The position numbers and the translations under genes are program-made. 64,000 bases of DNA from an uncultured Nitrospiraceae bacterium (GTDB lineage: Bacteria > Nitrospirota > Nitrospiria > Nitrospirales > Nitrospiraceae), in NCBI GenBank assembly GCA_963730935.1, contig CAVSTP010000004.1, positions 352,001 through 416,000 on the forward strand, given 5' to 3'. The notes under the pieces were generated by a model. That model was not told the origin of the DNA, made no database searches, and saw only the letters and a list, made by a program, of their open reading frames with translations. Below, in pieces: positions 9,507 through 63,988 of this stretch. How positions within the stretch are numbered: the first letter of the stretch is position 1; every line of letters starts with the position of its first letter.

Positions 9507-11764
9507 CTAGTCCGAGATTGTGATTGTGATCGACGTAGCGGTCCAATCGGCCGGCGGAGCAGCTGGTGCAGGCGCGCAATTTCCGCCACCACTGCAGTGG
9601 ATGCCGTGGGCAAGGCATCCGGAATCGGCGAAGTCGAATTCGCGGCTGCCGGAAGTCCGGTGAGGGATTGCCCAGCCTCGGGCTGAACCGGAACGCTCTC
9701 CCCCGGCACATGTGGACTGCTGTCGGGGACCGTCAGAATTCCGCGCGCCGCCACCGAAGTCAGTTGCTGCCTCAGCGACTGCATCCCGCTGGCGATTGCT
9801 CGGGTCTTCAATGTGACTGAGGTGTTCTCTGACGCGCCTTGCAGCGACGTGATGCGATCGCGGATCATCTGCGCCGTCTGAAGGTCCGTACTGCTGAAGA
9901 CACGGATCGTGTCCGTGCCCTTTGGCGGACTGTAATCCCAATAGAACCCCGCCTGATTCCCCGGTTTGAGCGAATCAGGAATCAGCACGGCTTCTCCCGC
10001 CCGCAGAAAACCGTCACCGTGGTACTGGCGATTCTGGTAACTGTTGGGGAACAAGAGATTGACTCCACCCTCGGAATCGACGTCGACAATGGTGACATAC
10101 GAATCGGCGCTGACCCGCACTTCGAGTTGCAGACTGTTCTGTTCGGATCGTGGCTTTCCTTGCTTCCGGATGCGATATTTCACCGCCTGAGTGTCGCCCA
10201 CCACCTTGATTCCGCGTGTGCTGACGCTGCCTTTGGTCTTGGTGGCAGAAGCCACGCGAACGTCTACCTTCAGCTGAGAAGATGGGTTGTCCAATGTCAG
10301 CAGCTCTGAGGCGTTCGAAGACCGCGACACGACCGTAGCGACGCCGGCGCCCCAGGGCTCGCGCACTCCGAATGTCCCGACGACTTCGAGTCCGTCTGCT
10401 GCGAGGAGGCGCACGGTATCTCCCTCCATGTCGACGGCGAACCTCGCCGGCTGCTCGGGTCCAACCAGATCGACATCCTTAATATTCGTGCGCAGGGTTT
10501 CTTCAATCACATGCCGGCTGTCCGGCGGCACGTCAAGAATGCGAATGGGAATCCGTTGACCGGTCGGCGGAGGAAGCAGCGCAATGGCGCGTGCACCGGA
10601 AGGGATCTTGCCGGCGGACGCTTGGAGCTTTGCGACGACATCTTTGCCGCTCACTTGCGTGACGCTGGCGACTGCGAGTGCGCGCCCAGGCAGAAATCTC
10701 GTTTCGCCGGGTGGATAGAGGGACCACGTGGAACCTGGGGCAGCACCCAGCAGCGTGCCATTGATCAGCGTCACCGTTCCTGCAGAGCCTGGTTGCACCT
10801 CGAGCCACGCGCGCCTGGCGGGGACCTGGCCAGCGGATTGACCACCGACGGACGGCGAGTCCAGCAAAGCCGTTTCCAACAAATTGGGAGGCGCTTCCAA
10901 TTGAGGCTCGGGCATGGAACTGCGGCCGAAGTGCGCCTGGATACGTTTCAACTCACGTTCGACCCCTGAGAACACCTCTCGCGGGGAGGCGCCGGAGGGA
11001 GCCTGGCTCAAACTTTTCGACAGCGAGTAGGTAAAAAACCCGTGATAGCGGCCGTCGACCGGACCGTCGAGGGCTTCTTGATGGGAAGCTGCGCCGGTCA
11101 TCACCACGTATCGTGACGTGATGACCGGCACGATCGCCCTCGTTTTCGGTTTTGCATCTTCCGCCTTCCTGTAGATGTCGATGCGCATATCTCGCGGGAT
11201 TGAGCGTGTCCGAATATCGAGGGACCTGGTTGCCGTGCCCGAGTGGCAGGAGTCCAGAACAATCATGGCGGTCTTTGCGCGCAAACGGGCGAAGATGGCG
11301 TCCAATTCATCGTCGGTGATGTCGCGCACATCTCCTGAACGACCGTCTTGTGGCACGAGCGTTTCATCGAGATGGTCCTCTGGTTCGTCGCCGTTGAGAT
11401 CCTCCACCTGCGAGCCGTGGCCAGAATAGTGGAAATAGACGGTGTCATTGGGGCCGGCCTCTTTCACTAGCTGCTCAAGCGCGGCCAGCATGCCTGCTCT
11501 TGTGGCGGCGTCGTCCGTGACCATCGTGATGTGGCTGTCAGCAAAGCCCCATCGTGTGATCAGAATCTGCCGGATCGTTTCGATATCGTTGAGCGATCCT
11601 TGCAGCCTGGGGACGTTCTTATATTTGTTGATGCCGATCAATAGGGCTCGTTTGACGCTGGCGCTGTCCTGAGATTCAACGCCGAGCGGGAGAAGCATCG
11701 AGGCCGCCGAGCAGGTCAACACCGATACCGCAAAGATGAACCATGACCGGCGAAGAGCAGTCAT
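9507..11764 (-). CDS. Exported caspase-family (peptidase C14, metacaspase-like) protease with C-terminal DUF4384-like domain; probable frameshift near 9580
   Basis: Signal peptide; RALLIGINKY..LQGSLNDI, YFHYSGHGS (His), LDSCHSG (Cys), DLNGDEPEDHLDETLVPQD loop; DUF4384-like YVTIVDVDSEGGVNLLFPN; a plausible C-terminus DWTATSITITISD* is in the alternate frame ending at 9507 (track ORF ends at 9488). Confidence 0.88.
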
Positions 11765-11826
11765 TGACCAACACCTCTTTGGTGACGCACTGGATGCTCG
11801 TGAGTCGATATCGGCCCTTCGCCGGT

Positions 11827-12486
11827 TCACTGTTGGACCAGTTGGGCCGAGCGGACGACATCGCCTTGCTCACGCAACAGAGCAAGCGCAGCGGCTGGAT
11901 CGTCGGTGCGCAAGCCGATAGTGAACACGCCGTCTGCCGTCGGACCGTCCACGATCCTGGCAGGCAGTCGTTCAAGCAACGACCGGATGCTTGCTTCAGT
12001 GGCAGATGGCTGGAACCGAACGTGGATCTTCGTCTGTGTCTGCATGACTACGGAACGGCTGGACACCTCGTTCCGCTCGTCCGGAGGCAACGTCACCCAA
12101 AGCAAAAGCCCCATTTGCGCGACCAATAAGAGGGCGGCCAAAGTCGGTACCCACTGAGGCACGAGGAGCGACCGGAACCAGCGGTCCAAGCCTGCGGCCC
12201 AGGATGCGTCTTGATGCGCCTGATCGTGACCAATAGTGTCAGCCGCCACCCGCGCCATCACCGATCTATAGATACGAGGGGAGGGCTCGGCTTCCTGGCG
12301 AGACAGCTCGGTCAGCGCTTGGCGGATCTGAGTGAGATCTTCCAGTTCACGGTTGCAGTCTCGGCAGGATTCGAGATGTCTCGCGACTCGCTGCTGATCA
12401 GCCTCTCCGAGCGTACCTGTGGCATACCAAGGCAGCAACTGGACCTCCGGATGCACGCCGGCCGGCAAGGTGTCAGGATCGCTCAT
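11827..12486 (-). CDS. Anti-sigma factor with zf-HC2 zinc finger, one transmembrane helix and an extracytoplasmic domain
   Basis: LLPWYATGTL...HLESCRDC motif; hydrophobic helix WVPTLAALLLVAQMGLLLWV; overlaps the stop of the sigma gene. Confidence 0.85.
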   Translation of the reverse strand: MSDPDTLPAGVHPEVQLLPWYATGTLGEADQQRVARHLESCRDCNRELEDLTQIRQALTELSRQEAEPSPRIYRSVMARVAADTIGHDQAHQDASWAAGLDRWFRSLLVPQWVPTLAALLLVAQMGLLLWVTLPPDERNEVSSRSVVMQTQTKIHVRFQPSATEASIRSLLERLPARIVDGPTADGVFTIGLRTDDPAAALALLREQGDVVRSAQLVQQ

Positions 12487-13064
12487 CGGATCGGCTCCGT
12501 CTGGCCCAGGTGTGCAAGCTGTTCTTTAAGCCGCTGCTTGGCATAGTACACGCGCGTCTTCACCGTATTGGTCGGGATGCCGAGCAAGGTGGAAATTTCC
12601 TCATAGGGTTGTTCCTCATAAAACACGAGCCGCAGGATTTCCCGGTGCTCTCTCGTCAGCGCGGCCATGGCCCGTTGTGTCAGCGTCGCAAGTTGATTGC
12701 GGAACACGCCTTCATCAGGACGATCATGCGGATGAGGAAGATCGACCGCGCCATCCAATGCGATTTCTCGCTGGCGGCGGCCCGAGCGTCTGATCGCGTC
12801 GAGAGCCTTGTGCCGGGCGATCCCGAATATCCAGGTGGATACCCGTGACGTGCAGGCGAACGAGCCGGCCCCCCGCCAGACGGCAAGCATGGTATCGTCT
12901 ACAACTTCTTCCGCCAACGATGCATCGGAAACGAGCGTCTGCACGTACTGATATACCCGTTTTTCGTAAGAGTGGTAGAGGCGCTCAAATGCTGGTCGAT
13001 CACCATGGGCCACCGCCGCAAGAAGATCATTCTCCGACGTGTCTTTGACGTGTGTCGCGTCCAT
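12483..13064 (-). CDS. ECF-family RNA polymerase sigma-70 factor
   Basis: GDRPAFERLY, AEEVVDDTMLAVW, STWIFGIARHKALD (region 2); YEEISTLLGIPTNTVKTRVYYAK (region 4). Confidence 0.93.
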   Translation of the reverse strand: MDATHVKDTSENDLLAAVAHGDRPAFERLYHSYEKRVYQYVQTLVSDASLAEEVVDDTMLAVWRGAGSFACTSRVSTWIFGIARHKALDAIRRSGRRQREIALDGAVDLPHPHDRPDEGVFRNQLATLTQRAMAALTREHREILRLVFYEEQPYEEISTLLGIPTNTVKTRVYYAKQRLKEQLAHLGQTEPIR

Positions 13065-13079
13065 CGGGGCCTGAGTTCA
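13054..13079 (-). promoter_or_regulatory. ECF-type promoter variant TGAACT-N16-CGAC overlapping the sigma start codon
   Basis: One mismatch to the motif repeated across the island; exact 16-nt spacer. Confidence 0.5.
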
Positions 13080-13187
13080 AGAGAATCGAGACCCTTGAGC
13101 GGCCTTGCTGTAGCACATTTTCGGGAACCCCTCAATAGACGACGTTGATTGACCGGCCGCCACGAGCGTTCTACAATGCCTTGTCGC

Positions 13188-13213
13188 TGAACCTTTTGCC
13201 GTGTTCTCCCGAC
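13188..13213 (+). promoter_or_regulatory. ECF-type promoter TGAACC-N16-CGAC
   Basis: Exact motif 28 nt upstream of the 13242 ORF. Confidence 0.7.
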
Positions 13214-13241
13214 GTACGGGACAGCACGGGAGGGCGAGATC

Positions 13242-14958: not shown

Positions 14959-14970
14959 AAGGGCAGCACG

Positions 14971-23985: not shown

Positions 23986-24966
23986 ATGAATCCGCGATAC
24001 CTCATGTGGAAGCGATGGACAGTTGCGGCGTTGATTGGCACGGGCGGACTGGCTGTCAGTCTCGTCCACCAGGTGGATCAAGTACCGTTCGCCACGGGTG
24101 AGCAGGCCTTCGCCGACGAAACCGCGCCCCAGGGAGAGATCACCGGGCGGGCGGTGCCGGGCGTCTTGAGTGTTGGCAAGAAAACCCTGCGGCCGGCGGC
24201 GGCTGGCCCGAGCCCGGAAGAGATTCTCCAGAGACAGCTTCCGCCCTCCGCCCGGCCAGAAGAGCTGCGGGAGCCGACCAAATCCGACATGGAACAACGG
24301 TGTTTCCTAAACCCGAGATGCCGGCAGAAATTGGAACAGGCGAAGCAGGGCACACGTCCCACGACGATTCTCCCCGCCGCGACCGGGCCAAGCCCGGAGG
24401 AGCAACTCCAGAAGCAACTCTTGCCGCCGGCACAGGGAGTTTCACCACAGAGGCCGCGCAGTCAGGAGGGGTCCGGTCCGGTAGAGCAGCTCCTATCCTG
24501 GTTCAATCCCTTCACCCCGGCCTCAGCGTGGGCGCAGACCGGTTACTCTCTCACCCTCACACCGGCCAACAGGTCGAGCACGGTGCCAACCGGATACATT
24601 AACATATATGGCGGATGGACAATGGGTACTGCCCCCGGCTTCCATATTTTGGAAAGCTCCTACCCAACTCCTAGTCCCACTACCGAGAATCAACCCTTCA
24701 TTTACCTCTCTGCTTATCTTCCAGCAGCGGGGTACTATGTCATCGACTTCGTCGCAGCTCCTTCTTTCACCAAACTGCGCCATCAAAACAACGGCCCCAT
24801 TCTAGAGACCTGGGATTATCGGACAACCGGGTGCGGGGGGGCAAACACCTGTCATTATGTGACGGTCGATTACTATGCCGCCGGACCCCATAGTTGGTGT
24901 TTCTGGGCGGATCCATCGGCAGCACCGACATTTTTCTACTCAGTCACGATTAAATCCTTTCTATGA
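23986..24966 (+). CDS. Exported hypothetical protein with internal duplication
   Basis: AAAGGAG RBS; hydrophobic N-terminus; GEITGRAV motif; repeated AxGPSPEExLQxQLxP. Confidence 0.7.
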   Translation: MNPRYLMWKRWTVAALIGTGGLAVSLVHQVDQVPFATGEQAFADETAPQGEITGRAVPGVLSVGKKTLRPAAAGPSPEEILQRQLPPSARPEELREPTKSDMEQRCFLNPRCRQKLEQAKQGTRPTTILPAATGPSPEEQLQKQLLPPAQGVSPQRPRSQEGSGPVEQLLSWFNPFTPASAWAQTGYSLTLTPANRSSTVPTGYINIYGGWTMGTAPGFHILESSYPTPSPTTENQPFIYLSAYLPAAGYYVIDFVAAPSFTKLRHQNNGPILETWDYRTTGCGGANTCHYVTVDYYAAGPHSWCFWADPSAAPTFFYSVTIKSFL

Positions 24967-25060
24967 TCGACGGGAATTCGCGCGCGGTGGATGGTAGCAG
25001 AGCGACTGTGACGGCACGGGGAGGACGACAGAAATCGGCGAACAGGTGCTGTTCATGACG

Positions 25061-25086
25061 TGAACCATTCAACGATGAGGGACGAC
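25061..25086 (+). promoter_or_regulatory. ECF-type promoter TGAACC-N16-CGAC
   Basis: Exact motif 23 nt upstream of ATG 25110. Confidence 0.7.
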
Positions 25087-25109
25087 ACACGAACAAGAGA
25101 GGACGAATC

Positions 25110-27746
25110 ATGAAATATGGATGGTCTCTGGTCCCGAAGCTGACAATGTGTTCGTTGCTTCTCAGCGCAGGCGTGGCATATGCGGATAATCCGCAGCTCG
25201 TCCCCGTCTTGAAAGGGCTCCTGCAAAAATACCAGAGATGCATTCTTGAAACCTACGAGAACGACATGAGCAAAACAAGTTCCTATGCTATAGGCCCTCC
25301 CAGAAATGGGGCAACGTGCGTGGCCGGAAACATCTGCACGATCCAATCCCGCCGAGATCTGTTCAACATGCTACAGGCTCAAGCAAACCGCGGGGACGCG
25401 ACAAACTTCCAAACCAATTTGCAGAAGGCGATTCTCGCCGATTGTTTCCAATGTGCAAAGCACAATGAGTTTCACACGAAGCATGTGCACTGCACCCAGG
25501 ATTGTAATGGGAATCAAAGCTGGAAGGACCCTAATAACCCTTTCCGCTTCGACGCCGCGGTCGGACCCTGCTTTGAGGGTTGCAAGGCGGGCGTCGACAT
25601 GACCAAGTTGGCCCGCGACATCGCAAATGACATCCAAAATGTGCTTCACAGCATCGTTGCGGACGTTCCACCTGCTCAGCAGCAGCCGCCGCAGGCAATC
25701 GGCGGAGTGAGCGTGGCGACGAACTATAGGATCATGACCATGGGCCCCGCGGAACAGTGCGATGCGACGCCCTCGGGTTACTTTATCGCTCCGGCCGAAC
25801 TCCTTGATTGGGACCAAACAGCCGCTCCGCCATTTATGGATGCCCTGACGAACTATCACCCGCCTGACAACGCTCCCAGCCGGCCTGCCTATAATCCCGC
25901 AGCATTGGCCAACCCGGATCGCAACGTGAGGCCGAACATTGGTGCAAACGAAGGTCGGCTGCGCGCGGATTTACGCAATGCAGCGGCTCGCCGCAATCCG
26001 GTAGAGAGTCTTTGCAGGTCTGCCGAGGCGTTCTCGCTCGGCAACGCCTCTGACGGAAACGCCTTCGCTGATCTCAGCGTGACTGGCCGCCGTGCGTACG
26101 CGGCCTTTCGGGCCCAACCGCCTCAAGAGGCGCAGATCCTCGCGTGCTTACAGAACAACCCTCGCACGAAGGCCTTGCCGGCAGATGTGCTTCAACTCGC
26201 AGCGACTCGTGCTCTCGATCGTGCGTATCAGGTCGCTAAGGTCATCAGAACGGGTGGCTGGGCAAAACCCGGTGTCAATCCCGAGCGCCAGCCGCTAGGG
26301 TACATTGCGGTTTCTGGAGAGGATGACCAACCCCATCGGCCTGTGAATGTGCCATCGGCGGAGTTTCCACAGTACGACCTTGATGTACAAGTTCCGGTGC
26401 CGAATGCTGCGCCCATACTGGTCCACACACGCTACATGATCGCGCATACGTTTCCTCCGCAGCAAATGCAGAATGTTGTGACCCTCCTCCCCGGCACCGT
26501 GCAGAAGTTGGCGCCAGCACAAGTGCAGTCTCGTCAGGTCGACCCCGCCCCCAGCACCGAGGAGACGTCGTCGCCAACAGAAGAAGAAGTTCAGACTCGT
26601 AAGGTTGACCCCGCCCCCGGCACCGTGCAGAAGTTGGCACCAGCACAAGTTCAGGCTCCTCCCGGGGGCCCTGCCCCTGGCACCATGCAGAAGTTCCTGC
26701 CAGCACAAGTTCGGACTCTTCCGGCAGACCTCGCCCCCGTTCTCGCACAAGACGCCATTGTTTTCCTTTATATCCCTGGCATGGATTCGCGCCTCGAAGA
26801 GGCTCTGGACATTGCACATGCCCTTCACGCTTTAGGACGCCAGCGTAATAAGAACTATACCGTCATCTCTATGGACCTCCCGACCAGCGGCTACGCGGAT
26901 AACATCGATTACAACCGAATCGCACCGCTAACAGCCGCTGGCCGTGCCAATGGGCTGGGGTTCGCGCCGAATAAATATGTCGTACCCATCGTGGACTTCG
27001 ATGAGAACTTTATCGTGAATTTCGTGAACACGCTCGATCGCTCCACGGGAGTGACCCGCCGCGAGATTTATCCAATTGGCGGCAGTTTGGGCGGCAACAT
27101 GGCATTCCGACTGGGTCGGCCTCGGCCGGACGCACCCTGGATCAAAAGCGTCGTCCCCTGGTCTCCGGCAGCCATCTGGCCGTCCATTGCAGATTCCGAG
27201 GTCAAGCATGTGGGACTCGCAGTACCTTGGTACCTCGCGGGCGGTGACCCAAACCTGGCTCAGGAGACACCTGGGTCGCGCAGGTCCTTCTTCTATGGTG
27301 GCTTCGATTGGGAGAGTAAAGTGGCCTACGTCATCCCTGCGGGTGGAGGGAAACCCCAATCGGAGTTTTGGTACAGCAACAGTTGGCCCTGTAAGCAGAC
27401 GCATCTCAAACTTGCAAGGATCGAACGATATGAAACCTATGATCACTACTTCCGTCTATGGCACTGGCGTCTCGGCATGGAGCAGCTGCTATTCAGTCAA
27501 CAGATTCCAATTCCTGGCACGAGTCCTCAGCAACCACTTTACCTGAGGAATACGAAGCGCATGCTGCTGATGTGTGGCATAGAAGATGTCGGCGCGGCAC
27601 TCTGTGAAGAAACACGGAAGGTTGCGCCACATATGGAAATGACCCCTGGCCGCGCACTTTTTCTGACGGCCACCGGCCACTCTATCCACAATGAACGGCC
27701 GAACTTCCTAGCGCAGCAGATTGTCGACTTTGTAGAGGGTCGTTAA
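25110..27746 (+). CDS. Exported protein with Cys-rich N-terminus and C-terminal alpha/beta-hydrolase fold
   Basis: Signal peptide ending AYA; MDLPTSGYA, GGSLGG nucleophile elbow, TGHSIHNERP. Confidence 0.75.
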   Translation: MKYGWSLVPKLTMCSLLLSAGVAYADNPQLVPVLKGLLQKYQRCILETYENDMSKTSSYAIGPPRNGATCVAGNICTIQSRRDLFNMLQAQANRGDATNFQTNLQKAILADCFQCAKHNEFHTKHVHCTQDCNGNQSWKDPNNPFRFDAAVGPCFEGCKAGVDMTKLARDIANDIQNVLHSIVADVPPAQQQPPQAIGGVSVATNYRIMTMGPAEQCDATPSGYFIAPAELLDWDQTAAPPFMDALTNYHPPDNAPSRPAYNPAALANPDRNVRPNIGANEGRLRADLRNAAARRNPVESLCRSAEAFSLGNASDGNAFADLSVTGRRAYAAFRAQPPQEAQILACLQNNPRTKALPADVLQLAATRALDRAYQVAKVIRTGGWAKPGVNPERQPLGYIAVSGEDDQPHRPVNVPSAEFPQYDLDVQVPVPNAAPILVHTRYMIAHTFPPQQMQNVVTLLPGTVQKLAPAQVQSRQVDPAPSTEETSSPTEEEVQTRKVDPAPGTVQKLAPAQVQAPPGGPAPGTMQKFLPAQVRTLPADLAPVLAQDAIVFLYIPGMDSRLEEALDIAHALHALGRQRNKNYTVISMDLPTSGYADNIDYNRIAPLTAAGRANGLGFAPNKYVVPIVDFDENFIVNFVNTLDRSTGVTRREIYPIGGSLGGNMAFRLGRPRPDAPWIKSVVPWSPAAIWPSIADSEVKHVGLAVPWYLAGGDPNLAQETPGSRRSFFYGGFDWESKVAYVIPAGGGKPQSEFWYSNSWPCKQTHLKLARIERYETYDHYFRLWHWRLGMEQLLFSQQIPIPGTSPQQPLYLRNTKRMLLMCGIEDVGAALCEETRKVAPHMEMTPGRALFLTATGHSIHNERPNFLAQQIVDFVEGR
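26489..26712 (+). repeat. Three copies of a roughly 36-nt unit (PGTVQKLAPAQV) inside the hydrolase gene
   Basis: CCCCGGCACCGTGCAGAAGTTGGCxCCAGCACAAGT recurs at about 26489, 26615 and 26675. Confidence 0.8.
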
Positions 27747-27911
27747 GAAGACTCTGGACTCAAGGGCCCGTGGACGGTCCTCACCGGCGTTGCAACGCCG
27801 GTGTGTGAGAGGGTATGCGGCGGCATTCTGTCGGCCTTCGATGAAGGATACGAGGAAGGACTCGCATGAATCCGCTGGCATGCTGTGAGAGGCAAGGGAG
27901 TGCGTGAACTC

Positions 27912-28601
27912 ATGTCCAGGACAATGAGCATCGCGACGCTGTTTGTGGCGGCGTTGTCCTGTCCGTCGTTGGCATTCGCATTCGAAGGCGTGATTTCTTT
28001 CAAGAGCAACTATTGGGGCGAAGCGTCGGAGTTTCAGTACTACAGCAAGGACGAAAGAAACCGGATAGAAACGCAACGTGCAAGACATGGACGGGCAGCC
28101 GTCATCATGGATTTCAAGACGAAAAAAGTTTCAATGCTCCTGCTCAACTTGAGGTTGGCGATGGTGATGAACATGAACTTCGCAACCTTGTTAGCCTCGA
28201 ACGATGCCGCTGGTAAGCTCACCAGAATGGGAGAAAGCAAGTTGGTCCTCGGGTATCGGGCCGAGCAATTCTTGCATGATGGCGAGGAAGAACACACTGA
28301 GATCTGGGGGACAACCGGACTTGGACTTTTTGTCGGACTGCATCCAACCTCCTCGATGTTTGGTCGCACCGGCGGTGCACCGCCTTGGGTCCGTGCATTG
28401 AGAGAGCAGGGGATCTTTCCATTAATCGTCATCCGAACGGACAAGGATGGAAAGGAGCGAGGTCGAATGGAGGCGACGGCCATTGAGAACAAAGTCCTGT
28501 CGGACGACCTTTTTGAAGTGCCTCCCAGATACATCACCTACAACAAGTTCGATCCCGGCAACAAGATGCCCGGTATGCCTGGCACGGTATGGGTCAAGTA
28601 A
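27912..28601 (+). CDS. Exported DUF4412-like protein
   Basis: Signal peptide ending AFA; FEGVI, GESKLVLGYRAEQF, GIFPL, LSDDLFEVP pattern. Confidence 0.7.
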   Translation: MSRTMSIATLFVAALSCPSLAFAFEGVISFKSNYWGEASEFQYYSKDERNRIETQRARHGRAAVIMDFKTKKVSMLLLNLRLAMVMNMNFATLLASNDAAGKLTRMGESKLVLGYRAEQFLHDGEEEHTEIWGTTGLGLFVGLHPTSSMFGRTGGAPPWVRALREQGIFPLIVIRTDKDGKERGRMEATAIENKVLSDDLFEVPPRYITYNKFDPGNKMPGMPGTVWVK

Positions 28602-28671
28602 CGGAATGAACTTGGAGCATTCTGCGCAGGCTGGCTTTATCCATCGAGTTGCACGTGAAGGAGGTCATATC

Positions 28672-29094
28672 ATGACGCAGATGTACCGCCTTGTGAAGCT
28701 GGCAGTGTTGATGATGGTGTTGTTCCATCAGAACGGGTACGCCTCTTCTACTTCCTATCCCATCACGAATATCGACCGGAAGGGTGTAGTGACTGTCACC
28801 GATCTCAAATCCAAGCAAACCTTCCAGTTTCAAGTCGTGGATCCCAAACTGCTAAAGACGTTGAAGGTCGGACAATTGGTGTACCCGGATTTCCAGAATC
28901 GGAAGGTCTCACTTGACGGGGTAAATCCCTGTTGCCAAATAGTCAATTCACCACAGCTCGGAACTCCCCTCGGACGGAAGCAATTGCCCAACACGATGGA
29001 ACCAAGTGGACCTTCCCCTGACGTCATGCCGTTGAGTCCCATTCAGCCGCCGATGCAGGTTCCTGCCGCTCCTGGCCCGGTGTCGCCGCGGTAG
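28672..29094 (+). CDS. Exported small beta-domain protein with Pro-rich tail
   Basis: AAGGAGG RBS, signal peptide, ITNIDRKGVVTV...LKVGQLV. Confidence 0.65.
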   Translation: MTQMYRLVKLAVLMMVLFHQNGYASSTSYPITNIDRKGVVTVTDLKSKQTFQFQVVDPKLLKTLKVGQLVYPDFQNRKVSLDGVNPCCQIVNSPQLGTPLGRKQLPNTMEPSGPSPDVMPLSPIQPPMQVPAAPGPVSPR

Positions 29095-29123
29095 GAGAGC
29101 GATGTGGTGGGGTAGACACGGCT

Positions 29124-29149
29124 TGAACCTTTTTTGGGATCAATTCGAC
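29124..29149 (+). promoter_or_regulatory. ECF-type promoter TGAACC-N16-CGAC
   Basis: Exact motif upstream of ATG 29197. Confidence 0.7.
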
Positions 29150-29196
29150 ACAGAATGCATCAACTGGCCAGACCGGTGTCCGAAAGGAGAGGCTGT

Positions 29197-30780
29197 ATGA
29201 GAATTCCGACTCTTATCCTTGCAGTGGCAGGCTCCATTCTTCTGGGGCATATGCCTGCATTTGCAGACGATGAAAAACCAGGCGAGGTTGAAAGCCGTGG
29301 TACCTCGAAAATCGAGCGTCCGATGCAGCCTGGAATGGCTGCGGCACCCGGCGCGCCGGGACAGCAGAAATTCCAGTTGCCCACCTGGCCACAGAAATTC
29401 ACTGTCGAAGACCGGAAACCGGCCTCACTCGGGCTTGCGGTCACGCAGCCCGGACCGCTCGTCGTCGATGTTCAATGGCAAGGGCCGGCGTTGGAGGCGA
29501 CGCTGCGTGGGCCGATCGCACAACCGATCGTGCAACGTGGGCAGGGCCAGCTACGTATTACGTATCAGGTGGCGCCTCAGGACGTCCAGAAAGGCATCCT
29601 ATGGGTGGTGAACTTGACGCTTCCTCCGAATACCAAAGGCCAAGCCACGGGTCAGGTGATGGTGCAACATCCCGCTGTGAACGAGGCGCAAGCCGAAACC
29701 GCAGTGCGCGCGCGGGTTAGCCAGGCGCAGCAACAGACCAAGCTAAGCCCGGCCGAAATTCAGGGTCACACCCAGGCTATCTTACAGGCTCACAAGAATG
29801 AGGATGCGCGACAGTACCAGCAGTACCTCAAGGAGACGGCGCTACAAGCGGACGCGCTTCTGAAGCAAAAGGGCTTTCAGGGACAAGTTCAAAGCAGAGC
29901 GCTCAAGCCGTCCCGAGATCCTGCTGCACAATCTTCACAGATTCCACCCGATGCTCGAAGAAACCTACAGGGGTTGGTACCTCCGCCCCCGCATATCGAC
30001 AGCTTGAGTGTGACGTATGCCTCCCCGGGTGCGAACGTTGTGATTCAAGGCAGTGGTTTCACCAATAGAGTCGGGCATGTCCTGATGTCGACGACGAACG
30101 CAGCGGTGCAGCCGGAGGCGAAGGTGGTTCAAAACGCTTCAGGACCCATTTGGTCCGACACGCTCATCGAGGTCACTGTGCCGGAACTTACCGGCGTCAC
30201 CGTGTTCAACTCGAATTTGTTCGTCGTTGTAGAAGGCGATCCAGCTACCGGTCCACTGATCAGCAATTGGGCTCCGTTCCTATTTACCCCCCGGCAACAG
30301 ACGAGGGTGTTCTCGATGGTGTCACCGATCGATCATCGTCTTGCAACCTCGACTGGTCCTAGCGAACTGGGCGGATTCGGGACTGAGGGAGGGGTGGCTG
30401 GCGAAGACATCAATCACAGCAGGATCGTCGCCACTCTTTTTTTCAATCCCGATATCTTTTTCGGGCACGATGGGCATGACCGGTTCTATGAAAATACCAC
30501 GCTGCAGAACGGCTGGAGAGTGACCTGCGTCGAGGTCATCCCATTTGATCTACACAATTGCCGTCCCAACAATAATACCGTCTATGGCATCCCTCCAGGG
30601 ACAGGGGCGTACATCTACAGCGTGAACCAGAATGCCGGGCCCATAAGGCTCGACGTCAGATGGTGGTTCGACGCATTCGTAATGTTCACGAGCTACAAGT
30701 ATGTCTTTGTTATCAGGGGACCCGAAAATGTACCGGACGGGCTCTTATGCCATACGGTGGCCGCTTGCAGCGCCCCATGA
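29197..30780 (+). CDS. Exported protein with IPT/TIG-like domain
   Basis: Signal peptide ending AFA; PHIDSLS...PGANVVIQGSGF...WSDTLIEVTVP; GEVESRG and GQVQSRA motifs. Confidence 0.75.
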   Translation: MRIPTLILAVAGSILLGHMPAFADDEKPGEVESRGTSKIERPMQPGMAAAPGAPGQQKFQLPTWPQKFTVEDRKPASLGLAVTQPGPLVVDVQWQGPALEATLRGPIAQPIVQRGQGQLRITYQVAPQDVQKGILWVVNLTLPPNTKGQATGQVMVQHPAVNEAQAETAVRARVSQAQQQTKLSPAEIQGHTQAILQAHKNEDARQYQQYLKETALQADALLKQKGFQGQVQSRALKPSRDPAAQSSQIPPDARRNLQGLVPPPPHIDSLSVTYASPGANVVIQGSGFTNRVGHVLMSTTNAAVQPEAKVVQNASGPIWSDTLIEVTVPELTGVTVFNSNLFVVVEGDPATGPLISNWAPFLFTPRQQTRVFSMVSPIDHRLATSTGPSELGGFGTEGGVAGEDINHSRIVATLFFNPDIFFGHDGHDRFYENTTLQNGWRVTCVEVIPFDLHNCRPNNNTVYGIPPGTGAYIYSVNQNAGPIRLDVRWWFDAFVMFTSYKYVFVIRGPENVPDGLLCHTVAACSAP

Positions 30781-30867
30781 CCATCAGCTGATGGGTTAGC
30801 AGCGCCGAACCATGAGAGAACTATTCGCTGAATGGATCGTAGGGACATTCGTGCACCTGGAGGAATC

Positions 30868-32436
30868 ATGAACCGCAACTTCTATCGGGAATGGCTCATT
30901 GCAGCACTGCTTGTAGCGGGATGCACTGGAAACGAACCCGTCATCGATCCAAGTCCAAACGGAGTCGAGAGCCGCGGCGTGCCGAAGACGCAGCGTCCGG
31001 TGAAGCCGGGGATACAGGAGCAACCAGGTGCCAACCTCAAATCGCCCACTTTTCCACAAAAATTCGAGGTGCAAGGCCCTGAAGTAGACTCCTTCGGGTT
31101 TGCCGTGACACAGCCAGGTCCAATCAACGTCGATGTGCAGGCGCAGGGTGCGCCACTGCTTGTGACACTGCAATCAGCCGGCGGCAAGCCAATCACGCAG
31201 ACTGCGACAGGCGGGCTGCGAATGAGTTACAACGTCACGCCGCAGGATGTGCAACGCAGTGTGTTCTGGGTGGTGCAATTCCGCTTGGCACAGCCAATAC
31301 CGCCGCTGCAGGGCGGTCGCGCAACCGGAACCGTGAACGTGCAATACCCGCCAGTCGATCAAGCGGCAGCTCAGCAGGCCGCGCAAACACAGCTCCGGCC
31401 GCCAACTCAACAGGAACTCGACCAGGCACGCGCACAAGGGGAGGCGCAGGTGACCGAAATCATCAGCGCCAGGAAGGCGCAGTTTGCCCAGGATCAAGAA
31501 CGCCGCTTTCAGTCGGACCGGGCCAGAGTGCAGCCGTTGCTTGATCGCATGAGCGCCGGGACACCAGGACAGGTGCGGTCTCGCGGTCTCGATGAGAAGG
31601 AGCCATCAGCCATTGAGCCGGCACAATCTAGCGAAGAGATTACCTCGCGGGCGATTCCAGACAAGCAAGTACTCCAATCATCCAAGCAACAAACCATCTC
31701 ACAGCAGAACTCCGGAAAGATGTCGGGCATCCTACCTCCGAGTCCGCCACAAATTACCTCATTGAGCGAAACCAGTGGTGGCCCGAAAAAGACGATCATC
31801 ATCAACGGGACTGGCTTCAGCACGGCTCAGGGTCAAGTCTATTTCACTGCGCCACCTGACCGAACATTCTCGGCGACCATCACCAATTGGACGGATACGG
31901 GTATCGGGATTGAAATCCCGAACGTGACGGGCGTCATGCCTTATCAGGCGAATCTCTATGTGCAACGCGGCCAGGACAGGAGCAATACCGTTCTCTTTAG
32001 TTATGTCCCGAGGCCGGAGTTAAGGACTATCCGAAGCATGACAGACGATAGGCGCCACAGTGGAACCGTCTTGACCAACTATCTGGCTGGGCCGGGAAAC
32101 AAGATGATGCATGTTCGAATACCTGGCATTCCTTTCAGCGAGTTTGCTGGAGAGAAGGGGAATGACGAGTACTTTCTGAGAACTCAATTGAAGAATGGCT
32201 GGACGGTGGCTGGAGCTACAATGCTCAAGAATCCGGTCAACGTCACGGTGAGCGCGGCACAGGCCGGAACGTATCAGTGGCTAGGCGACGGGTACATCCA
32301 GGAGCAGGGCACTGGCTCTAACCCGTACCTCAATGTCAGGTGGTGGGTAAACGCCTTCACGCCATTTACCATCTACTATTTCCTGATCGATATCGTCGGT
32401 CCGGAAGGGATTCCGGACGGCGTGGTGATTCCGTAG
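30868..32436 (+). CDS. Lipoprotein with IPT/TIG-like domain, paralog of 29197-30780
   Basis: Lipobox VAGC; PQITSLS...IIINGTGF...WTDTGIGIEIP; shares PQKFxV, AVTQPGP, LxNGW and VRWW with the upstream gene. Confidence 0.75.
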   Translation: MNRNFYREWLIAALLVAGCTGNEPVIDPSPNGVESRGVPKTQRPVKPGIQEQPGANLKSPTFPQKFEVQGPEVDSFGFAVTQPGPINVDVQAQGAPLLVTLQSAGGKPITQTATGGLRMSYNVTPQDVQRSVFWVVQFRLAQPIPPLQGGRATGTVNVQYPPVDQAAAQQAAQTQLRPPTQQELDQARAQGEAQVTEIISARKAQFAQDQERRFQSDRARVQPLLDRMSAGTPGQVRSRGLDEKEPSAIEPAQSSEEITSRAIPDKQVLQSSKQQTISQQNSGKMSGILPPSPPQITSLSETSGGPKKTIIINGTGFSTAQGQVYFTAPPDRTFSATITNWTDTGIGIEIPNVTGVMPYQANLYVQRGQDRSNTVLFSYVPRPELRTIRSMTDDRRHSGTVLTNYLAGPGNKMMHVRIPGIPFSEFAGEKGNDEYFLRTQLKNGWTVAGATMLKNPVNVTVSAAQAGTYQWLGDGYIQEQGTGSNPYLNVRWWVNAFTPFTIYYFLIDIVGPEGIPDGVVIP

Positions 32437-32470
32437 CCTAGCTTGTTCGGCGGCCTGTGGGAGGAAGACG

Positions 32471-32740
32471 ATGAAATTTCATGGAATCTCACTCTTGCTC
32501 ATTTTCACGGTCCTTTGGCTGCCTGCAGCCAGTATTGCCGGCGATGTTGCACAGTCGCCGGCCACTCAAGGGACGCAGCCGCAAAGTGGTTCACCGGCTT
32601 CAAAAGAAAAGACTGCCAAGAAGCCTAATCAAGATGACGTAAAATCCCGCGGTCTGTTCAAAAAGAAGAAAAAGAAACAGAAAGGGGGCTCGGCAGCCCA
32701 TTCACAGCCTTCGGAAAAGACAGATTCGCCGACACAGTAG
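32471..32740 (+). CDS. Small exported protein with poly-Lys tract
   Basis: Signal peptide ending SIA; DDVKSRGLFKKKKKKQK. Confidence 0.65.
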   Translation: MKFHGISLLLIFTVLWLPAASIAGDVAQSPATQGTQPQSGSPASKEKTAKKPNQDDVKSRGLFKKKKKKQKGGSAAHSQPSEKTDSPTQ

Positions 32741-59202: not shown

Positions 59203-59241
59203 AAAGTCTCCTCCACGCTGCGCCACTGGAGACAGTTCATG

Positions 59242-60325: not shown

Positions 60326-60436
60326 ACATCCCTCCCGTGGGTTTCATAAAAGTTGCTGACTGGTTGTTCCAAGAGATGATATTTCTCCCTATTCTCCGAT
60401 GATGGGTCGGCGACACATTAGCCGGTGTTACTTTCT

Positions 60437-61190
60437 TCAACTCGCTCGCGCAATCAGCTCTTTCAGTCCCTTTAGATCCAGGCGCTCCTGGTTGCAGTTC
60501 GGTTCCGACTATGAATCCCGGTGTGCCGTTGATGCCGAGCTCCTTGGCCAGCGCGCGATTACGATCGATGACCATCTGCCACTCCGAGTTCGCCATGTCG
60601 GCTTCGAGTCGTTTGGTGTCAAGCCCGACCTCGGTCGCGACGCGCAGCACTTCTTCCTTTGTCATCTCGTTCTTGCTGGCGAGCAGCGCTTCATGAAACT
60701 GTTGATGTTTGCCTTGTGCGCGCGACGCCAGAGCGGCTTTCGCGGCAAGTTCGGAGGGCTCGCCGAGAATCGGGAAATCCTTATAGACGACGCGCACTCT
60801 CGAGTCTTCTTTTTGCAGCTGCGTCACGGCTGGTGCTGCTCTCTTGCAGAATCCGCAGCGGTAGTCGAAAAACTCGACGAGAGTGACCTCGCCGTCGGGA
60901 TTCCCGCTTACCGGCGAGCTTGGATCGCGAAGCAGGTCTTGCTGCCGTTTGCCGATGGCCGCCTTCTGCCGCGCCTTTTCCTCCGCCTCCCGCTTAGTCT
61001 CAAGTGCCTGCAGAGATTGCTCGATCACTTCAGGGTGCGAGCGGATGTACTGCTCGATGGCACGTTCCAGTTCCGGTGTGAGCTTCGAGTCAGTCACTGT
61101 CGGTTCGGCCCATACATTGGATGGACTCAGCAGGCATATTGCCGCACAACCTGCAGCTAGTAACCCGCAACCACCTGAGGAAGAGATCAT
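60437..61190 (-). CDS. DsbA-family (Com1/ScsC-like) thiol-disulfide oxidoreductase; extra base near 60481
   Basis: IEQYIRSHPEVI, VEFFDYRCGFCK, KDFPILG, LGINGTPGFIVG; removing one C gives the typical end PGALDLKGLKELIARAS*. Confidence 0.88.
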
Positions 61191-61229: not shown

Positions 61230-61450
61230 GTCTGTCGCCCTGTGTCTTTCAAAGGTTCATGCCAAAAATTGAAGATTCCCGATGCCGTTATGAACCTATT
61301 GGCAGCGCCTCATGACATACAGGATGAGAGGACATTCAGTCCTCCCAGTTCAAAGGAGGCACACCATGTGGATCATCGCCATCGTTTTCCTCCCGCTCAT
61401 CGTCATAGCCCTCACTTCACTTCTGTGCGAGACCTTGGAAAGGGAGTAGG
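61230..61450. repeat. Copy 1 of a roughly 220-bp element: back-to-back ECF-type promoters, hairpin, RBS and small ORF
   Basis: Similar to 63136-63356; minus-strand TGAACC-N16-CGAC at 61234-61259, plus-strand TGAACC-N16-TGAC at 61291-61316. Confidence 0.85.
61366..61449 (+). CDS. 27-aa single-TM peptide MWIIAIVFLPLIVIALTSLLCETLERE
   Basis: AAAGGAGG RBS; conserved in the second copy with mostly conservative changes. Confidence 0.65.
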   Translation: MWIIAIVFLPLIVIALTSLLCETLERE

Positions 61451-61502: not shown

Positions 61503-62467
61503 TCACCGAATCCCTGGCGGAAACACGACACCGATCGATGCTTGCCCCCCCGCAGCTTGACCTAACGGGACAATTTGACCGGCCGGACCGGCCTGACGGA
61601 TTTGCGTGCTCATCTGTTGGATGACGTTTTCGAATTCCAGGCTGAACTCCGTCGTAAACGTTTGGCAGGTAATGATCACGCAGCCGACAAAGCTACCCTT
61701 TTCATGCTTGCAGTCGGGATCATAAGGACAGGCGTCGTCAGCGTTACGGGTCCCATCGCCATCGCAATCTCCGTCCGGCCCTTTATCCTGGCAATTGTCC
61801 CTCGTTGTCTTTTGCTGTTGTTCGTTCTTGTGGTTCTGCCACCAGGCCGCTATCCAGTTCCAGGCATCTTGGAAAAAGCCCCAAACGGTAAACACGTTAG
61901 TCCCGAAAGGCTGTGGGCCGGCCAATCGAGTCCGGAGCACGTACACGAAGCGCATCCAGTCCCACCATGCGCATGACATCTGCTCTCGGTATCTGAATGA
62001 CATCGGCGAACTGATTCGGCGTAAACACCATCGCGACATCCGTTCTGCCCGCTATTACGGAATCGAGAGTTTGAAGACCGCCGGGCGTGTTCCGCAGCGT
62101 ATTTGCGAGAGATGCGCGCACGGGAGCCTGCGAGTACACGACGGATATATCAACGGGGGTGATCCAATACCCGTTGACGAATGCAATCGGTGGGATGGTG
62201 CGTAGTTGGCGGCGAATCTCGCGCGTCGACCGCGCTGCGTACAACCGGCTGGTTCAGGGCGGCACGGTACGCCGACATGACCTGAGGTGATGGTGGGGGA
62301 ACTCGAGAAGTGCCGGAGGGACGACCTGGAAATTGCGGCACCGCCCGCTCTTCGATGCCTCCTTGCTTCGAGGTGTCGTCCGCCTGCACAAATGTGGCTT
62401 CCATATTGAACATCACTAAGCCACAAATGAAGAAGCCTGCCCAACGAACACTGTCGACCGTATTCAT
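61503..62467 (-). pseudogene. Exported protein split over three frames, with thrombospondin type-3-like Ca-binding motif
   Basis: Signal peptide and GIEERAVP (62150-62467); middle part in 61897-62244; DCDGDGTRNADDACPYDP in 61503-62039. Confidence 0.55.
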
Positions 62468-62523: not shown

Positions 62524-63084
62524 TTAGTGCGGACCCAACACCTTTCTGATCTTATTGTTGGCGCTATTGAGTTCTGCACAATTGTTGGGAGGGTTGCAAA
62601 TGATAGTGACTTCGACAATGACTGTCTCTGCCGCGGTAAACTTTGGGTCGACTTTGAATTTCTTCGATTGATCGGGCGCGAGCGGAGCCACAGTTCGCTG
62701 ATCCCTGATCGTGCAATTGTTGTTCGCAATGCACTGGCTTGGATTGGGCGGTGTGCTCAGAGGGTTGTACCGCATACCTAACGTCAGAACCTGTACGGAT
62801 GGCATCGGCACGTTACCCTTGTTTACGATCTTGATCTCCGCCTTGTACTGGGCATGCAAGACATCGAGCCATTCTTGATCGATGGAGGCTGTCACATCCG
62901 GCAGAGGGAAGTGTTGTGGAACAGGCAGGCCTCTTTTCTCAACCTGTCCCTCTTGGCTGTTCGGTTCGGTGTTGGCCGGTTGGTCTTGAGCTAACAGAGA
63001 AGCAGTCGTCCAGCACGGAAATACTGCTAGCGCACACAGTGAGAGTATCAACGATAGCCTGCTCCACCGCGGGGCTAGGTGCAT
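62524..63084 (-). CDS. Exported CARDB-like Ig-fold protein
   Basis: AAGGAG RBS; signal peptide; GQVEKRG; LPDV...IVNKGN...LAPDQS...ELNSANN. Confidence 0.7.
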   Translation of the reverse strand: MHLAPRWSRLSLILSLCALAVFPCWTTASLLAQDQPANTEPNSQEGQVEKRGLPVPQHFPLPDVTASIDQEWLDVLHAQYKAEIKIVNKGNVPMPSVQVLTLGMRYNPLSTPPNPSQCIANNNCTIRDQRTVAPLAPDQSKKFKVDPKFTAAETVIVEVTIICNPPNNCAELNSANNKIRKVLGPH

Positions 63085-63135
63085 GTCGGTCTCTCCTTAT
63101 CCTTAGGAGCTTCGTCAGGTGGAATCTTTTGGTAC

Positions 63136-63356
63136 GTCTGTCGTCCTGTATCCTTCAAAGGTTCATGCCCAAAAATCGAAGGGATCATACACCTGCATGA
63201 ACCTTTGAGTGGCGCCTCGTGACCTACCGACGAGAGGACATTCAGTCCTCCCCGGCTCAAAGGAGGCAGATCATGTGGGTCATCGCCATCGTTTTCGTCC
63301 CGCTCATCCTCATCGCCGTCAGCTCGCTGGTGTGCGAGTCCTGGGAGTGAGAGTAG
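63136..63356. repeat. Copy 2 of the bidirectional promoter / small ORF element
   Basis: Minus-strand TGAACC-N16-CGAC at 63140-63165, plus-strand TGAACC-N16-TGAC at 63198-63223. Confidence 0.85.
63273..63350 (+). CDS. 25-aa single-TM peptide MWVIAIVFVPLILIAVSSLVCESWE
   Basis: AAAGGAGG RBS; paralog of 61366-61449. Confidence 0.65.
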   Translation: MWVIAIVFVPLILIAVSSLVCESWE

Positions 63357-63358
63357 GA

Positions 63359-63988
63359 TTATTTCCCTCCCGTACGCACTCCATCCGCCCAACTCCGTGC
63401 CGCCTTGGCATCCGTGGGAGCCGGTTTCGTGCATTTCTTCCCCCGCACTCCATAGCTGATGGTCTCTGTCTTGATCGGGCAGGTGCCGAAGGGGGTGCCG
63501 AATTGGACGACTCCCTCAATGACGGTCAGAATGCTTTGCCCGTCGTTCTGCACCTTCAAATTGAACTCAGTTTCCTTTACAGATGCGGTTGCCACAGGCG
63601 TTTCCACTTCAAACCGCTTGGGTCCGCCGGCGGTTTTTGCCCACACCTCGCCCTGCGATAGTCGGAGAATCCGTGTCATGGGCTTGCCCTTTTCCCATCG
63701 AGAGATCAGCTTGAACGTGGTGCTTTCGTTCAAGGCGACCTGAATGCCTTCCTGAAACTCGATGAGGGCCTGGCTGCTCTCATCCGTCTTGAGCACGTCG
63801 CCCTCGTACAATGGCACATTGCCCTTTCCTTGAAGACGTTGCTGCACGCCGTCGGTTCGAACGATCGTCAGCGTACCGATCGCATTGGTCGCTGCACCGA
63901 GGGGAGTATTCTGGGCGATGGCAGTGCCGGTTACCGCAACGCAAAAGGTCATCAGAGCTGCGATGATGTTCCATGGATTCGATGTCAT
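63359..63988 (-). CDS. Exported FecR-domain protein
   Basis: Signal peptide; LYEGDVLKT, LSQGEVWA, FEVETPVATASVKETEF, LTVIEGVV. Confidence 0.8.
   Translation of the reverse strand: MTSNPWNIIAALMTFCVAVTGTAIAQNTPLGAATNAIGTLTIVRTDGVQQRLQGKGNVPLYEGDVLKTDESSQALIEFQEGIQVALNESTTFKLISRWEKGKPMTRILRLSQGEVWAKTAGGPKRFEVETPVATASVKETEFNLKVQNDGQSILTVIEGVVQFGTPFGTCPIKTETISYGVRGKKCTKPAPTDAKAARSWADGVRTGGK

Follow-up and report, generated by a model that had tools for sequence, protein, structure and literature searches.

The question raised by this locus is why a long row of exported proteins, most of them without a known family, should carry the same arginine motif at the border of an acidic segment, next to genes for caspase-like proteases of family C14. 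The locus lies in a 64,000-nucleotide stretch of an uncultured Nitrospiraceae bacterium (G000:C4:352001-416000; the genome, G000, has 4.05 Mb in 6 contigs), and the window below means this whole stretch. From about 24 kb to 63 kb it contains some 35 genes with export signals, mostly unannotated. Together with the protease and sigma factor genes beside them these are called the island here, and the motif-bearing proteins its cargo. We consider, with a probability of roughly 0.5, that the window encodes a self-contained, sigma-factor-controlled secretome of pro-proteins. The evidence consists of a narrow motif in a fixed placement, a mirror form of it near C-termini, a promoter sequence of the extracytoplasmic function (ECF) type, and the recurrence of the arrangement in other genera. 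Genes of G000 were predicted with our own rough caller (3466 genes) and signal peptides with a crude hydrophobicity rule that flags far too many proteins (1626 of 3466). The Pfam profile search covered 44 window proteins.

The arginine motif behind signal peptides

In the N-type arrangement a signal peptide is followed by an acidic, Pro-rich spacer of variable sequence and then by G-[DE]-[VI]-Q-E-R-[GA]-[VIL]. The window contains the following cargo with N-type sites; two further proteins that combine both types of site are listed in the next section.

23986 (+): N-type cargo, EITGRA at 24136-24153
29134 (+): N-type cargo, TIG protein, EVESRG at 29284-29301
30832 (+): N-type cargo, TIG protein, GVESRG at 30961-30978
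32471 (+): N-type cargo, last of the 23986..32740 group, DVKSRG at 32636-32653
37135-39015 (-): N-type cargo, DVTTRG at 38899-38916
39061-40764 (-): N-type cargo, EIQGRS at 40654-40671
40821-41630 (-): N-type cargo, EVSERA at 41532-41549
47238-48563 (-): lipoprotein cargo, EVQERG at 48273-48290
48585-49619 (-): cargo, DIQERG at 49341-49358
49632-51110 (-): cargo, DIQERG at 50424-50441
58624-59226 (-): cargo, DIQERG at 58960-58977
59242-59715 (-): cargo, EIQSRG at 59614-59631 and DVQERG at 59530-59547
60035-60325 (-): weaker N-type cargo, SMQVRG at 60182-60199
62150-62467 (-): weaker N-type cargo, GIEERA at 62342-62359
62524-63084 (-): weaker N-type cargo, QVEKRG at 62929-62946

The first-pass annotation of the window had counted about 25 exported proteins with [VILM]xxR[GAS]. 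In this general form the motif does not go beyond chance: its frequency per 1000 residues is 3.12 within the first 100 residues behind signal-like segments, 3.12 in the remainder of those proteins, 3.59 in other proteins and 3.3 across the whole predicted proteome. The individual peptides fared better. All 17 that had been listed are present in the genes named, each behind a hydrophobic signal-like segment except in 59242-59715, whose open frame shows no signal peptide, unlike that of its paralog at C4:533 kb. What stands of the supposed enrichment is the narrow core G-[DE]-[VI]-Q-E-R-[GA]-[VIL], which is strongly non-random. The pattern [DE][VI]Q[ED]R[GAS] has 14 six-frame matches in the 4.05 Mb genome, 8 of them after a signal peptide and spacer, 1 after a spacer only and 5 in unrelated settings. 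The nine matches in context all lie on contig C4, and 6 of these fall within the window. As background, [VI]xxR[GAS][VIL] occurs 0.37 times per 1000 residues in the predicted proteome.

A position-specific scoring matrix (PSSM) was built from instances in other genomes (57 regular-expression instances in 12 loci, reduced to 52 by pruning 5). On G000 it returned 10 matches of at least 18 bits, 9 of which lie in the signal-plus-spacer context. The PSSM score by itself is weak because a reversed-sequence control also gives matches, as the size of the search space predicts (3-4 at 18-20 bits or more; 4 at 18 bits), and a context-aware column-permutation control was used in its place. Twenty column-permuted matrices gave a mean of 1.55 matches on G000 and contextual matches in none of the 20 cases. 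It is the contextual placement, not the PSSM score, that carries the motif signal.

The Arg codons at the motif differ between genes (CGG, CGT, CGA, CGC and AGA), and the Gln, Glu and Val codons differ too. Such synonymous variation indicates a constraint on the protein and not a DNA repeat. G000 has 22 candidate bearers, 18 inside the window and 4 at other places on C4, and they form 16 BLASTP families, with paralogy among 48585/49632/58624/C4:802 kb, 29134/30832, 59242/C4:533 kb and 23986/C4:526 kb. Across the 94 instances that score 14 bits or more, the spacers contain 20% Asp+Glu, 3.7% Lys+Arg and 13.5% Pro, and their net charge is -5.6 on average; for the initial 40 residues of the mature part the corresponding value is +1.5. 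At the sequence level a signal peptide, a pro-piece and a kept site at the boundary of the pro-piece are all found on cargo.

A mirror motif near the C-terminus

Seven window proteins carry a related motif of the form [VIL]-x-x-R-G-V-E-[GEKS]-[EG], here called C-type. It is followed by an acidic, Ser/Pro-rich tail of 19-38 residues that often ends in Lys, and in one case by an internal acidic linker instead. A slash marks the predicted cut.

44943-46454 (-): S1 trypsin-fold lipoprotein (PF00089, E 2e-27), AVQER/A at 46221-46238 and VMSR/GVEEG at 45048-45065
46455-47045 (-): cargo, internal VMSR/GVEGE at 46674-46691
50761-51228 (-): Cys-rich cargo, IQRR/GVEGE at 50803-50820
52448-53341 (-): C-type protein, IMPR/GVEKE at 52523-52540, acidic tail
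56594-57055 (-): cargo of the small Cys-rich and related group, IMRR/GVEGE at 56666-56683
57102-57578 (-): cargo with both motifs, DVQER/A at 57357-57374 and LQHR/GVESE at 57144-57161
57575-58126 (-): cargo, VMPR/GVEGE at 57617-57634

The pattern [VILM]xxRG[VI]E occurs just 7 times in the whole predicted proteome, and about 30 further C-type proteins were found in island loci of other genomes. N-type and C-type sites occur together on 57102-57578 and on the S1 protein 44943-46454. In three loci of other genomes (L014, L019 and L010) an acidic linker opens with a C-type site and closes with an N-type site, which, as far as the sequence tells, is the layout of a polyprotein. The element common to both types is [VIL]-x-x-R / [GAS]-[VIL], and the acidic residues are always on its outer side. 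This orientation fits excision of a pro-piece, and a positional sorting tag fits poorly. Many of the acidic tails (e.g. 50761-50802, 57102-57143 and 57575-57616) end in ...SEKEGK, ...PETK or ...PESK; those of the S1 family do not.

Conservation of the N-type motif in relatives

In 32 genomes of the same genus the back-translated pattern GANRTNCARGARMGNGS gave 98 matches, compared with 30 for the reversed control. The matches in several of these genomes cluster on one strand within 5-25 kb, and the clusters that were fetched repeat the N-type anatomy in orthologs and in additional families. All 12 orthologs in the 47238 family retain the lipobox Cys and [DE]VQERG, while the spacer has drifted over most of its length. 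Within this otherwise variable spacer (window 48291-48470) an EVPVIPDE block is kept in 10 of the 12.

Positions around the Arg vary between families, and the Arg itself is invariant, never Lys, in every alignment examined. Orthologs of the two window TIG proteins read [DE][VI][GE]SRG, and those of 40821-41630 read EVTERA, DVTERA, EITERA or DVMERA. SVQDRG or AIQERA is found in orthologs of 60035-60325, QVEERG in those of 62524-63084, and GEVQERAVP in the paralog of 23986 at C4:526 kb. A FRDPIGPY piece is kept in 59242-59715 and in L002, L003, L009 and L011, where it stands after the signal peptide or the first EIQSR/G and ahead of the second motif. Some pro-pieces therefore hold two tandem sites.

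A sigma factor operon and an ECF-type promoter sequence

A picture of caspases heading an island of exported proteins, as first drawn, was right about the C14 proteins but missed the C-terminal motif, a sigma/anti-sigma module and a promoter; the locus is better described as a regulated module. One of the C14 proteases, C14-A, is encoded at the end of an operon that also codes for the ECF sigma factor and its anti-sigma factor.

12483-13064 (-): ECF sigma factor, at the head of the sigma / anti-sigma / C14-A operon; Sigma70_r2 (PF04542) E 1.1e-14, r4_2 (PF08281) E 6.8e-12
11827-12486 (-): anti-sigma factor, zf-HC2 (PF13490, E 2.4e-07), one transmembrane helix
12052-12069 (-): juxtamembrane periplasmic core of the anti-sigma factor, EVSSR/S-V
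9488-11764 (-): C14-A, metacaspase-like, with signal peptide, p20/p10 and DUF4384; PF00656 E 2.9e-27, PF14326 E 7.2e-17
13188-13213 (+): ECF-type promoter TGAACC-N16-CGAC, ahead of 13242
23832-23857, 25061-25086, 29124-29149 (+): further promoter copies
51417-51442, 54533-54558, 61234-61259, 63140-63165, 11804-11829 (-): further promoter copies

In an alignment of the sigma upstream regions a conserved TGAACC...CGAC element faces the divergent gene. The window has 13 matches to TGAAC-N16-18-CGAC where 2.2 are expected, a number reached by none of 100 shuffles, and nine or ten of the 13 precede island transcription units, C14-A included. With TGAACC-N15-17-CGAC, 47 matches were found genome-wide (11 in the window) against 17 in the reversed control, and island loci of other genomes, 531,612 bp in all, had 74 against 2. 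The adjacency of the sigma gene makes it quite likely that the island is the regulon of this sigma factor. The sigma upstream region (window 13065-13241 and its orthologs) also keeps the blocks ATTGTAG, GGTCAA...CTATTGAGGG and TG.TA.AGCA, and a conserved TTGAAC block stands directly ahead of the start codon.

The anti-sigma factor has [VI]-x-x-R-[SGA]-[VIL] at 6-14 residues past the transmembrane helix in all 23 readable orthologs. The core Arg is among 8 invariant columns of a 19-sequence alignment with 54% mean column identity, and the distant ortholog in G353, from another family of the same order, reads IIERGI. In one locus (L047, G028:C8:319600-323500) the anti-sigma ortholog shifts frame past the transmembrane helix, which may be a frameshift or an assembly error.

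The C14 proteases and the S1 candidate

Besides C14-A the window encodes two larger C14 proteins.

15929-19951 and 20247-23822 (+): two WD40 beta-propeller lipoproteins with C-terminal C14 domain; WD40, PF00656, lipobox LSTGC
11201-11218 and 11135-11152 (-): p20-p10 linker sites of C14-A, DIRTR/S and KPKTR/A

That three exported C14 proteases with intact His/Cys dyads are present (9488-11764(-), 15929-19951(+) and 20247-23822(+)) is borne out by Pfam: PF00656 matches them with E values of 2.9e-27, 2e-12 and 1.3e-12 (96.3, 47.7 and 48.4 bits; gathering cutoff 21.4), and export is indicated by a signal peptide in the first and a lipobox in the other two. C14-A aligns to yeast metacaspase-1 (Yca1, 4F6O) with E 1.7e-25, with HYSGHG and DSCHSG in register. 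The WD40-C14 fusions have AGHG and DTCFSG as dyad motifs, with Asp at Cys-2. In the metacaspase TbMCA2, Asp95 and Asp211 are described as accommodating basic substrate residues (PMC6426788, PMC4357240). All three C14 domains keep the equivalent Asp residues (xND; Cys-2), as mapped by their offset from the dyad and not by an alignment to TbMCA2.

In all 25 orthologs the linker between p20 and p10 of C14-A contains D-I-R-T-R-S-[IV]-P or a minor variant of it, followed by a second site [VIP]-x-[TK]-R-[AGQ]. In both WD40-C14 proteins (15929-23822) the loop after the catalytic Cys reads TVKMR/AFKAAR/GVSVV, where self-cleavage may occur at sites of this type.

The S1 protein at 44943-46454 was considered as a general convertase and rejected. 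Alignment to TMPRSS13 (A-S-L-C-E-G-D-S-G) places Ser at position 189, so that Asp189 is absent, and by inspection of the same alignment position 226 reads Ala. A homolog was not found in seven island-bearing genomes (G042, G100, G158, G089, G073, G148 and G127), whereas the positive controls G001, G027 and G157 were recovered. Because both motifs sit on the S1 protein itself, it looks like cargo. A complex prediction for the C14-A catalytic domain and the periplasmic part of the anti-sigma factor had a score of 0.00, gave no verdict and is used as evidence neither way.

Gene order and co-occurrence across genomes

The arrangement recurs as a unit that includes four further genes of the window.

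13242-14450 (+): kept exported protein, Pro/Gly-rich, divergent from the sigma operon
14971-15861 (+): second kept exported protein, likewise divergent
60258-61190 (-): DsbA-like oxidoreductase (PF01323, E 4.1e-23)
63359-63988 (-): exported FecR-domain protein at the far island end (PF04773, E 2.3e-16)

The order C14-A / anti-sigma / sigma / 13242-like / 14971-like / cargo with DsbA / FecR / C14 and WD40 was found in at least five genera (g1, g11, g17, g27 and g32). It is present in G001, G027, G013 and G009 of the same genus, in G042, G100, G158 and G089 from three other genera, and in G073, G148, G127 and G157 of one further genus, where the cargo motif is the variant [DE][VI][GE]SRG. FecR followed by C14 and WD40 was seen in L004, L006, L007, L009, L014, L017 and L020. 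The 13242/14971 pair stands beside sigma in every examined C14-A neighbourhood that holds the sigma operon, except G353, which has sigma and lacks both counterparts; G272, of another family of the same order, has neither gene.

C14-A orthologs were found in 31 of 151 sampled genomes of the family, and two full-length ones in another family of the same order. The counts of pattern matches per genome compare as follows; kin are not independent and the comparison is descriptive only.

Genomes with a C14-A ortholog (n=30): mean pattern matches 3.9, control 1.47; 15 genomes with at least 4 matches
Genomes without a C14-A ortholog (n=120): mean pattern matches 1.78, control 1.28; 14 genomes with at least 4 matches

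Motif genes occur in 13 of 14 examined C14-A neighbourhoods. In four genomes that lack C14-A and have high pattern counts, none of 18 matches is in context. The proposed co-occurrence of motif and caspase stands as a conserved unit, with one examined neighbourhood (G105) in which no motif gene was seen within 20 kb of C14-A. The C14-A of G000 is 67-76% identical to orthologs in genera g9 and g17 and 60-64% identical to most orthologs of its own genus, a pattern across genus boundaries that points to either two subtypes or a module that is passed on horizontally.

Possible mechanisms

In view of the above, the following scheme can be considered. The ECF sigma factor, the membrane anti-sigma factor and periplasmic C14-A would be produced from one operon next to an array that carries TGAACC-N15-17-CGAC. 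The products of this array would be exported by Sec, some as lipoproteins, bearing disordered acidic extensions. An N-terminal pro-piece would reach from the signal peptide or lipid anchor up to G-[DE]-[VI]-Q-E-R, and a C-terminal or internal one would start past [VIL]-x-x-R with G-[VI]-E-G-E. An Arg-specific endopeptidase would then cut [VIL]-x-x-R / [GAS]-[VIL], by which the acidic pieces are removed and lipoprotein precursors are freed from their anchor. Cleavage at the shared Arg sites is probable.

The likeliest enzyme would be C14-A or its WD40-fused C14 neighbours, an assignment that we give slightly less than an even chance. The earlier suggestion that the C14 proteases act as convertases is favoured by the shared island, the ECF-type promoter, the pocket Asp residues, the core in the C14-A linker and the anti-sigma factor, and the poor standing of the S1 protein as a rival; the loose motif count and G105 speak against it. 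Since the core sits in the anti-sigma factor and twice in the C14-A linker, the protease could be self-activating, by cutting its own p20-p10 linker, and could serve as site-1 protease on the anti-sigma factor, thereby freeing sigma. Cleavage of the anti-sigma factor is conceivable but rather unlikely. One core in C14-A, anti-sigma factor and cargo is consistent with a single recognising protease, a fit that stops short of proof. The most far-reaching version, in which one exported metacaspase-like protease uses one core, [VI]-x-x-R/[small]-[VI], for self-activation, site-1 cleavage and the trimming of about 20 regulon proteins, is more doubtful again.

A number of points weigh against the proposed secretome or the part of C14-A in it. 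Enrichment of the loose motif, as [VILM]xxR[GAS] or [DE][VILM]xxR[GAS], was dropped as evidence, both being at background frequency. Five genomes with C14-A (G021, G022, G073, G105 and G148) have no strict pattern match. In two of these, G073 and G148, and also in G127 and G157, variant motifs are found in the C14-A neighbourhoods, and the G021 contig stops at the C14-A gene; G105 has no motif gene within 20 kb of C14-A. In the other family G353 has C14-A, sigma and anti-sigma without local cargo, and G272 has a C14-A ortholog alone. The four satellite motif genes elsewhere on C4 have the promoter within 400 nt in 0 of 4 cases by the strict and 1 of 4 by the loose pattern. Conservation of the anti-sigma Arg could be structural, and synteny and co-occurrence could merely reflect joint carriage on a mobile island, as the C14-A identities ignore genus boundaries. 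Finally, we know of no metacaspase preference for Glu at P2 or for Asp/Glu at P5.

The last point also belongs to a different view of the enzyme, in which the sites are processed by a housekeeping or otherwise unlinked Arg-specific protease of the periplasm or outer membrane, while the caspases signal through the anti-sigma factor or serve in conflict or cell death. The composition of the pro-pieces, the mirror motifs and the bracketed linkers are all neutral as to the enzyme, and G353 and G272 have C14-A in the absence of nearby cargo. However, the only other protease-family matches in the window are the S1 protein, which has Ser189 and was not found in seven island-bearing genomes, and a weak metallopeptidase-like match at 53351-53878 that stays below the Pfam cutoffs. 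The core moreover recurs in the C14-A linker, where metacaspases self-cleave, and among the genomes examined contextual motif genes occur only where the C14-A module is present. We regard an unlinked protease as unlikely.

Less likely still, the motif might remain uncut and act as a docking or sorting tag, read by WD40, DUF4384 or a chaperone, for export across the outer membrane (possibly via the Hcp/VgrG/gp19-like proteins) or for retention. WD40 and DUF4384 are typical binding modules, a short linear motif past a disordered linker is typical of docking signals, and the two Hcp proteins, the VgrG and the gp19-like tube protein of the island each have a Sec or Tat signal. A tag does not explain well why the motif is found at either terminus of proteins and on both sides of internal linkers with the acidic side always the outer, dispensable one, an arrangement that excision fits better. 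Hcp/VgrG was not detected in the islands of G042, G100 and G158, and the constancy of Arg, without Lys in any alignment examined, also argues against it.

That the pattern is an artefact of paralogy or low complexity without a function of its own is very improbable: several bearers are indeed paralogous and the loose motif is no more frequent than background, but there are 16 unrelated families, no contextual match with 20 permuted matrices, an invariant motif beside diverging ortholog spacers, and synonymous variation of its codons.

Relation to known systems

Maturation of pro-proteins gated by a protease is of a known kind; the link to a sigma factor may be new. Arabidopsis metacaspase-4 (AtMC4) is described as cutting PROPEP1 after Arg69 to give Pep1, and as cleaving itself at several Arg/Lys linker sites (PMC7206013). 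The likeness lies in a C14 metacaspase with linker Arg sites, of which C14-A has two conserved ones. AtMC4, however, is cytosolic, is triggered by Ca2+ upon damage and has one substrate family, whereas here the enzymes are exported and the putative substrates form a panel of Sec proteins with N- and C-terminal motifs under one sigma factor.

In Porphyromonas, Arg-gingipain (C25, clan CD) is described as cutting the lipoprotein pilins FimA and Mfa1 after Arg, which removes the lipidated N-terminus (PMC5954841). The 47238 family has a similar order of lipobox Cys, spacer and [DE]VQER/G, kept in 12 of 12 orthologs. The systems differ in the protease family (C25 versus C14), in the type IX secretion system, for which no context was seen here, and in the C-terminal motif and ECF regulon added here. 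A pilin fold was not seen in the one cargo protein whose fold was searched, a 48585 model that gave only weak tandem beta-sandwich matches. C25 or pilin Pfam matches were absent among the 44 window proteins; a genome-wide C25 search was not made.

Regulated proteolysis of anti-sigma factors is treated in PMC4183432. The present locus has features of this mode of control, of which DegS/RseA is an example: a single-pass anti-sigma factor, here of the zf-HC2 type, a kept periplasmic site near the membrane and a co-encoded periplasmic protease. The site-1 proteases known so far belong to the serine proteases or are signal peptidase. The main text of an ECF reclassification (PMC7826278) does not mention C14, DUF4384 or Nitrospir*, and our literature searches brought up no caspase-family protease in the site-1 role.

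Caspase homologs are widespread in bacteria, and the orthocaspases, such as MaOC1 of Microcystis, are among them; to our knowledge they have essentially no established physiological substrates. As far as they are described in PMC6426788, the C14 proteins of the window resemble them in the p20-type C14 domain, the His-Cys dyad, the pocket Asp residues and the prediction that they cut after basic residues. The difference is their genomic linkage to a set of candidate substrates that share a consensus site.

A comparison can also be drawn with eukaryotic proprotein convertases and with the anionic pro-pieces of defensins, where an acidic segment offsets the charge of a basic, Cys-rich mature peptide and is cut off at a basic residue. 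The charge contrast between spacer and mature part is alike here. The eukaryotic convertases are subtilisin-like serine proteases that prefer dibasic sites, whereas the site here is monobasic with a hydrophobic P4.

In PMC3482391 Nitrospira appears in taxon lists only, and no paper was found in our searches that connects a motif or module of this kind with Nitrospira, with orthocaspases or with ECF groups. If the most far-reaching version is correct, it would give a bacterial orthocaspase its first defined set of physiological substrates, and a sigma-factor cascade would for the first time be known to be driven by a caspase-family protease. The scheme, if it holds, would add a regulated, protease-gated secretome to bacterial envelope biology and provide a compact, portable cleavage module. 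Candidate substrates with a sharp consensus, tied to C14 proteases, a sigma/anti-sigma pair and a promoter, make the question directly testable. Nitrospira is a key nitrifier in wastewater treatment and soils, and its dense microcolonies depend on secreted proteins.

Cargo and other genes of the island

Most cargo proteins have no known family, and NCBIfam had no model matching any motif protein. Recognisable types are small Cys-rich proteins beside the DsbA-like gene, TIG-domain proteins and a lectin-like lipoprotein (DUF7910, ricin-like). A model of mature 48585 is strand-rich and was read as two beta-sandwich domains (predicted local distance difference test, pLDDT, 80.3). The fold search with this family gave no PDB match at E<=0.001; weak look-alikes of the model are tandem fibronectin type III domains, FimH and the biofilm scaffold RbmA. 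These features suggest surface, matrix or adhesion functions, perhaps also antimicrobial peptides.

Pfam matches in the island are the S1 protease, the DsbA-like protein, two TIG-domain, two Hcp-like, a VgrG-like, a gp19-like and FecR-domain proteins. For 14971-15861, which has no Pfam match, ESM Atlas features resemble clusters of the arthropod Grp7 allergen/JHBP (lipid-binding) type, with a score of 0.94 and 165 shared features; this is a lead only. A further WD40 protein is encoded just beyond the window, in the open reading frames at C4:417084-420197. The DsbA-like reading frame (60258-61190) overlaps the small motif gene 60035-60325 by 68 bases. Its likeness to DsbA orthologs ends at residue 241 of 310, and its annotated end may be too long.

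The two Hcp-like proteins and the VgrG-like protein have Sec-type signals and the gp19-like tail-tube protein a Tat-like one (SRREFL...); the four genes are at 32741-33355(+), 34396-36483(+), 36505-37077(-) and 41995-43017(-). Export signals are unusual for parts of a contractile system, which suggests that the structure they form is put together outside the cytoplasm. A gp19-like gene is found again in several of the islands and Hcp/VgrG in only some of them.

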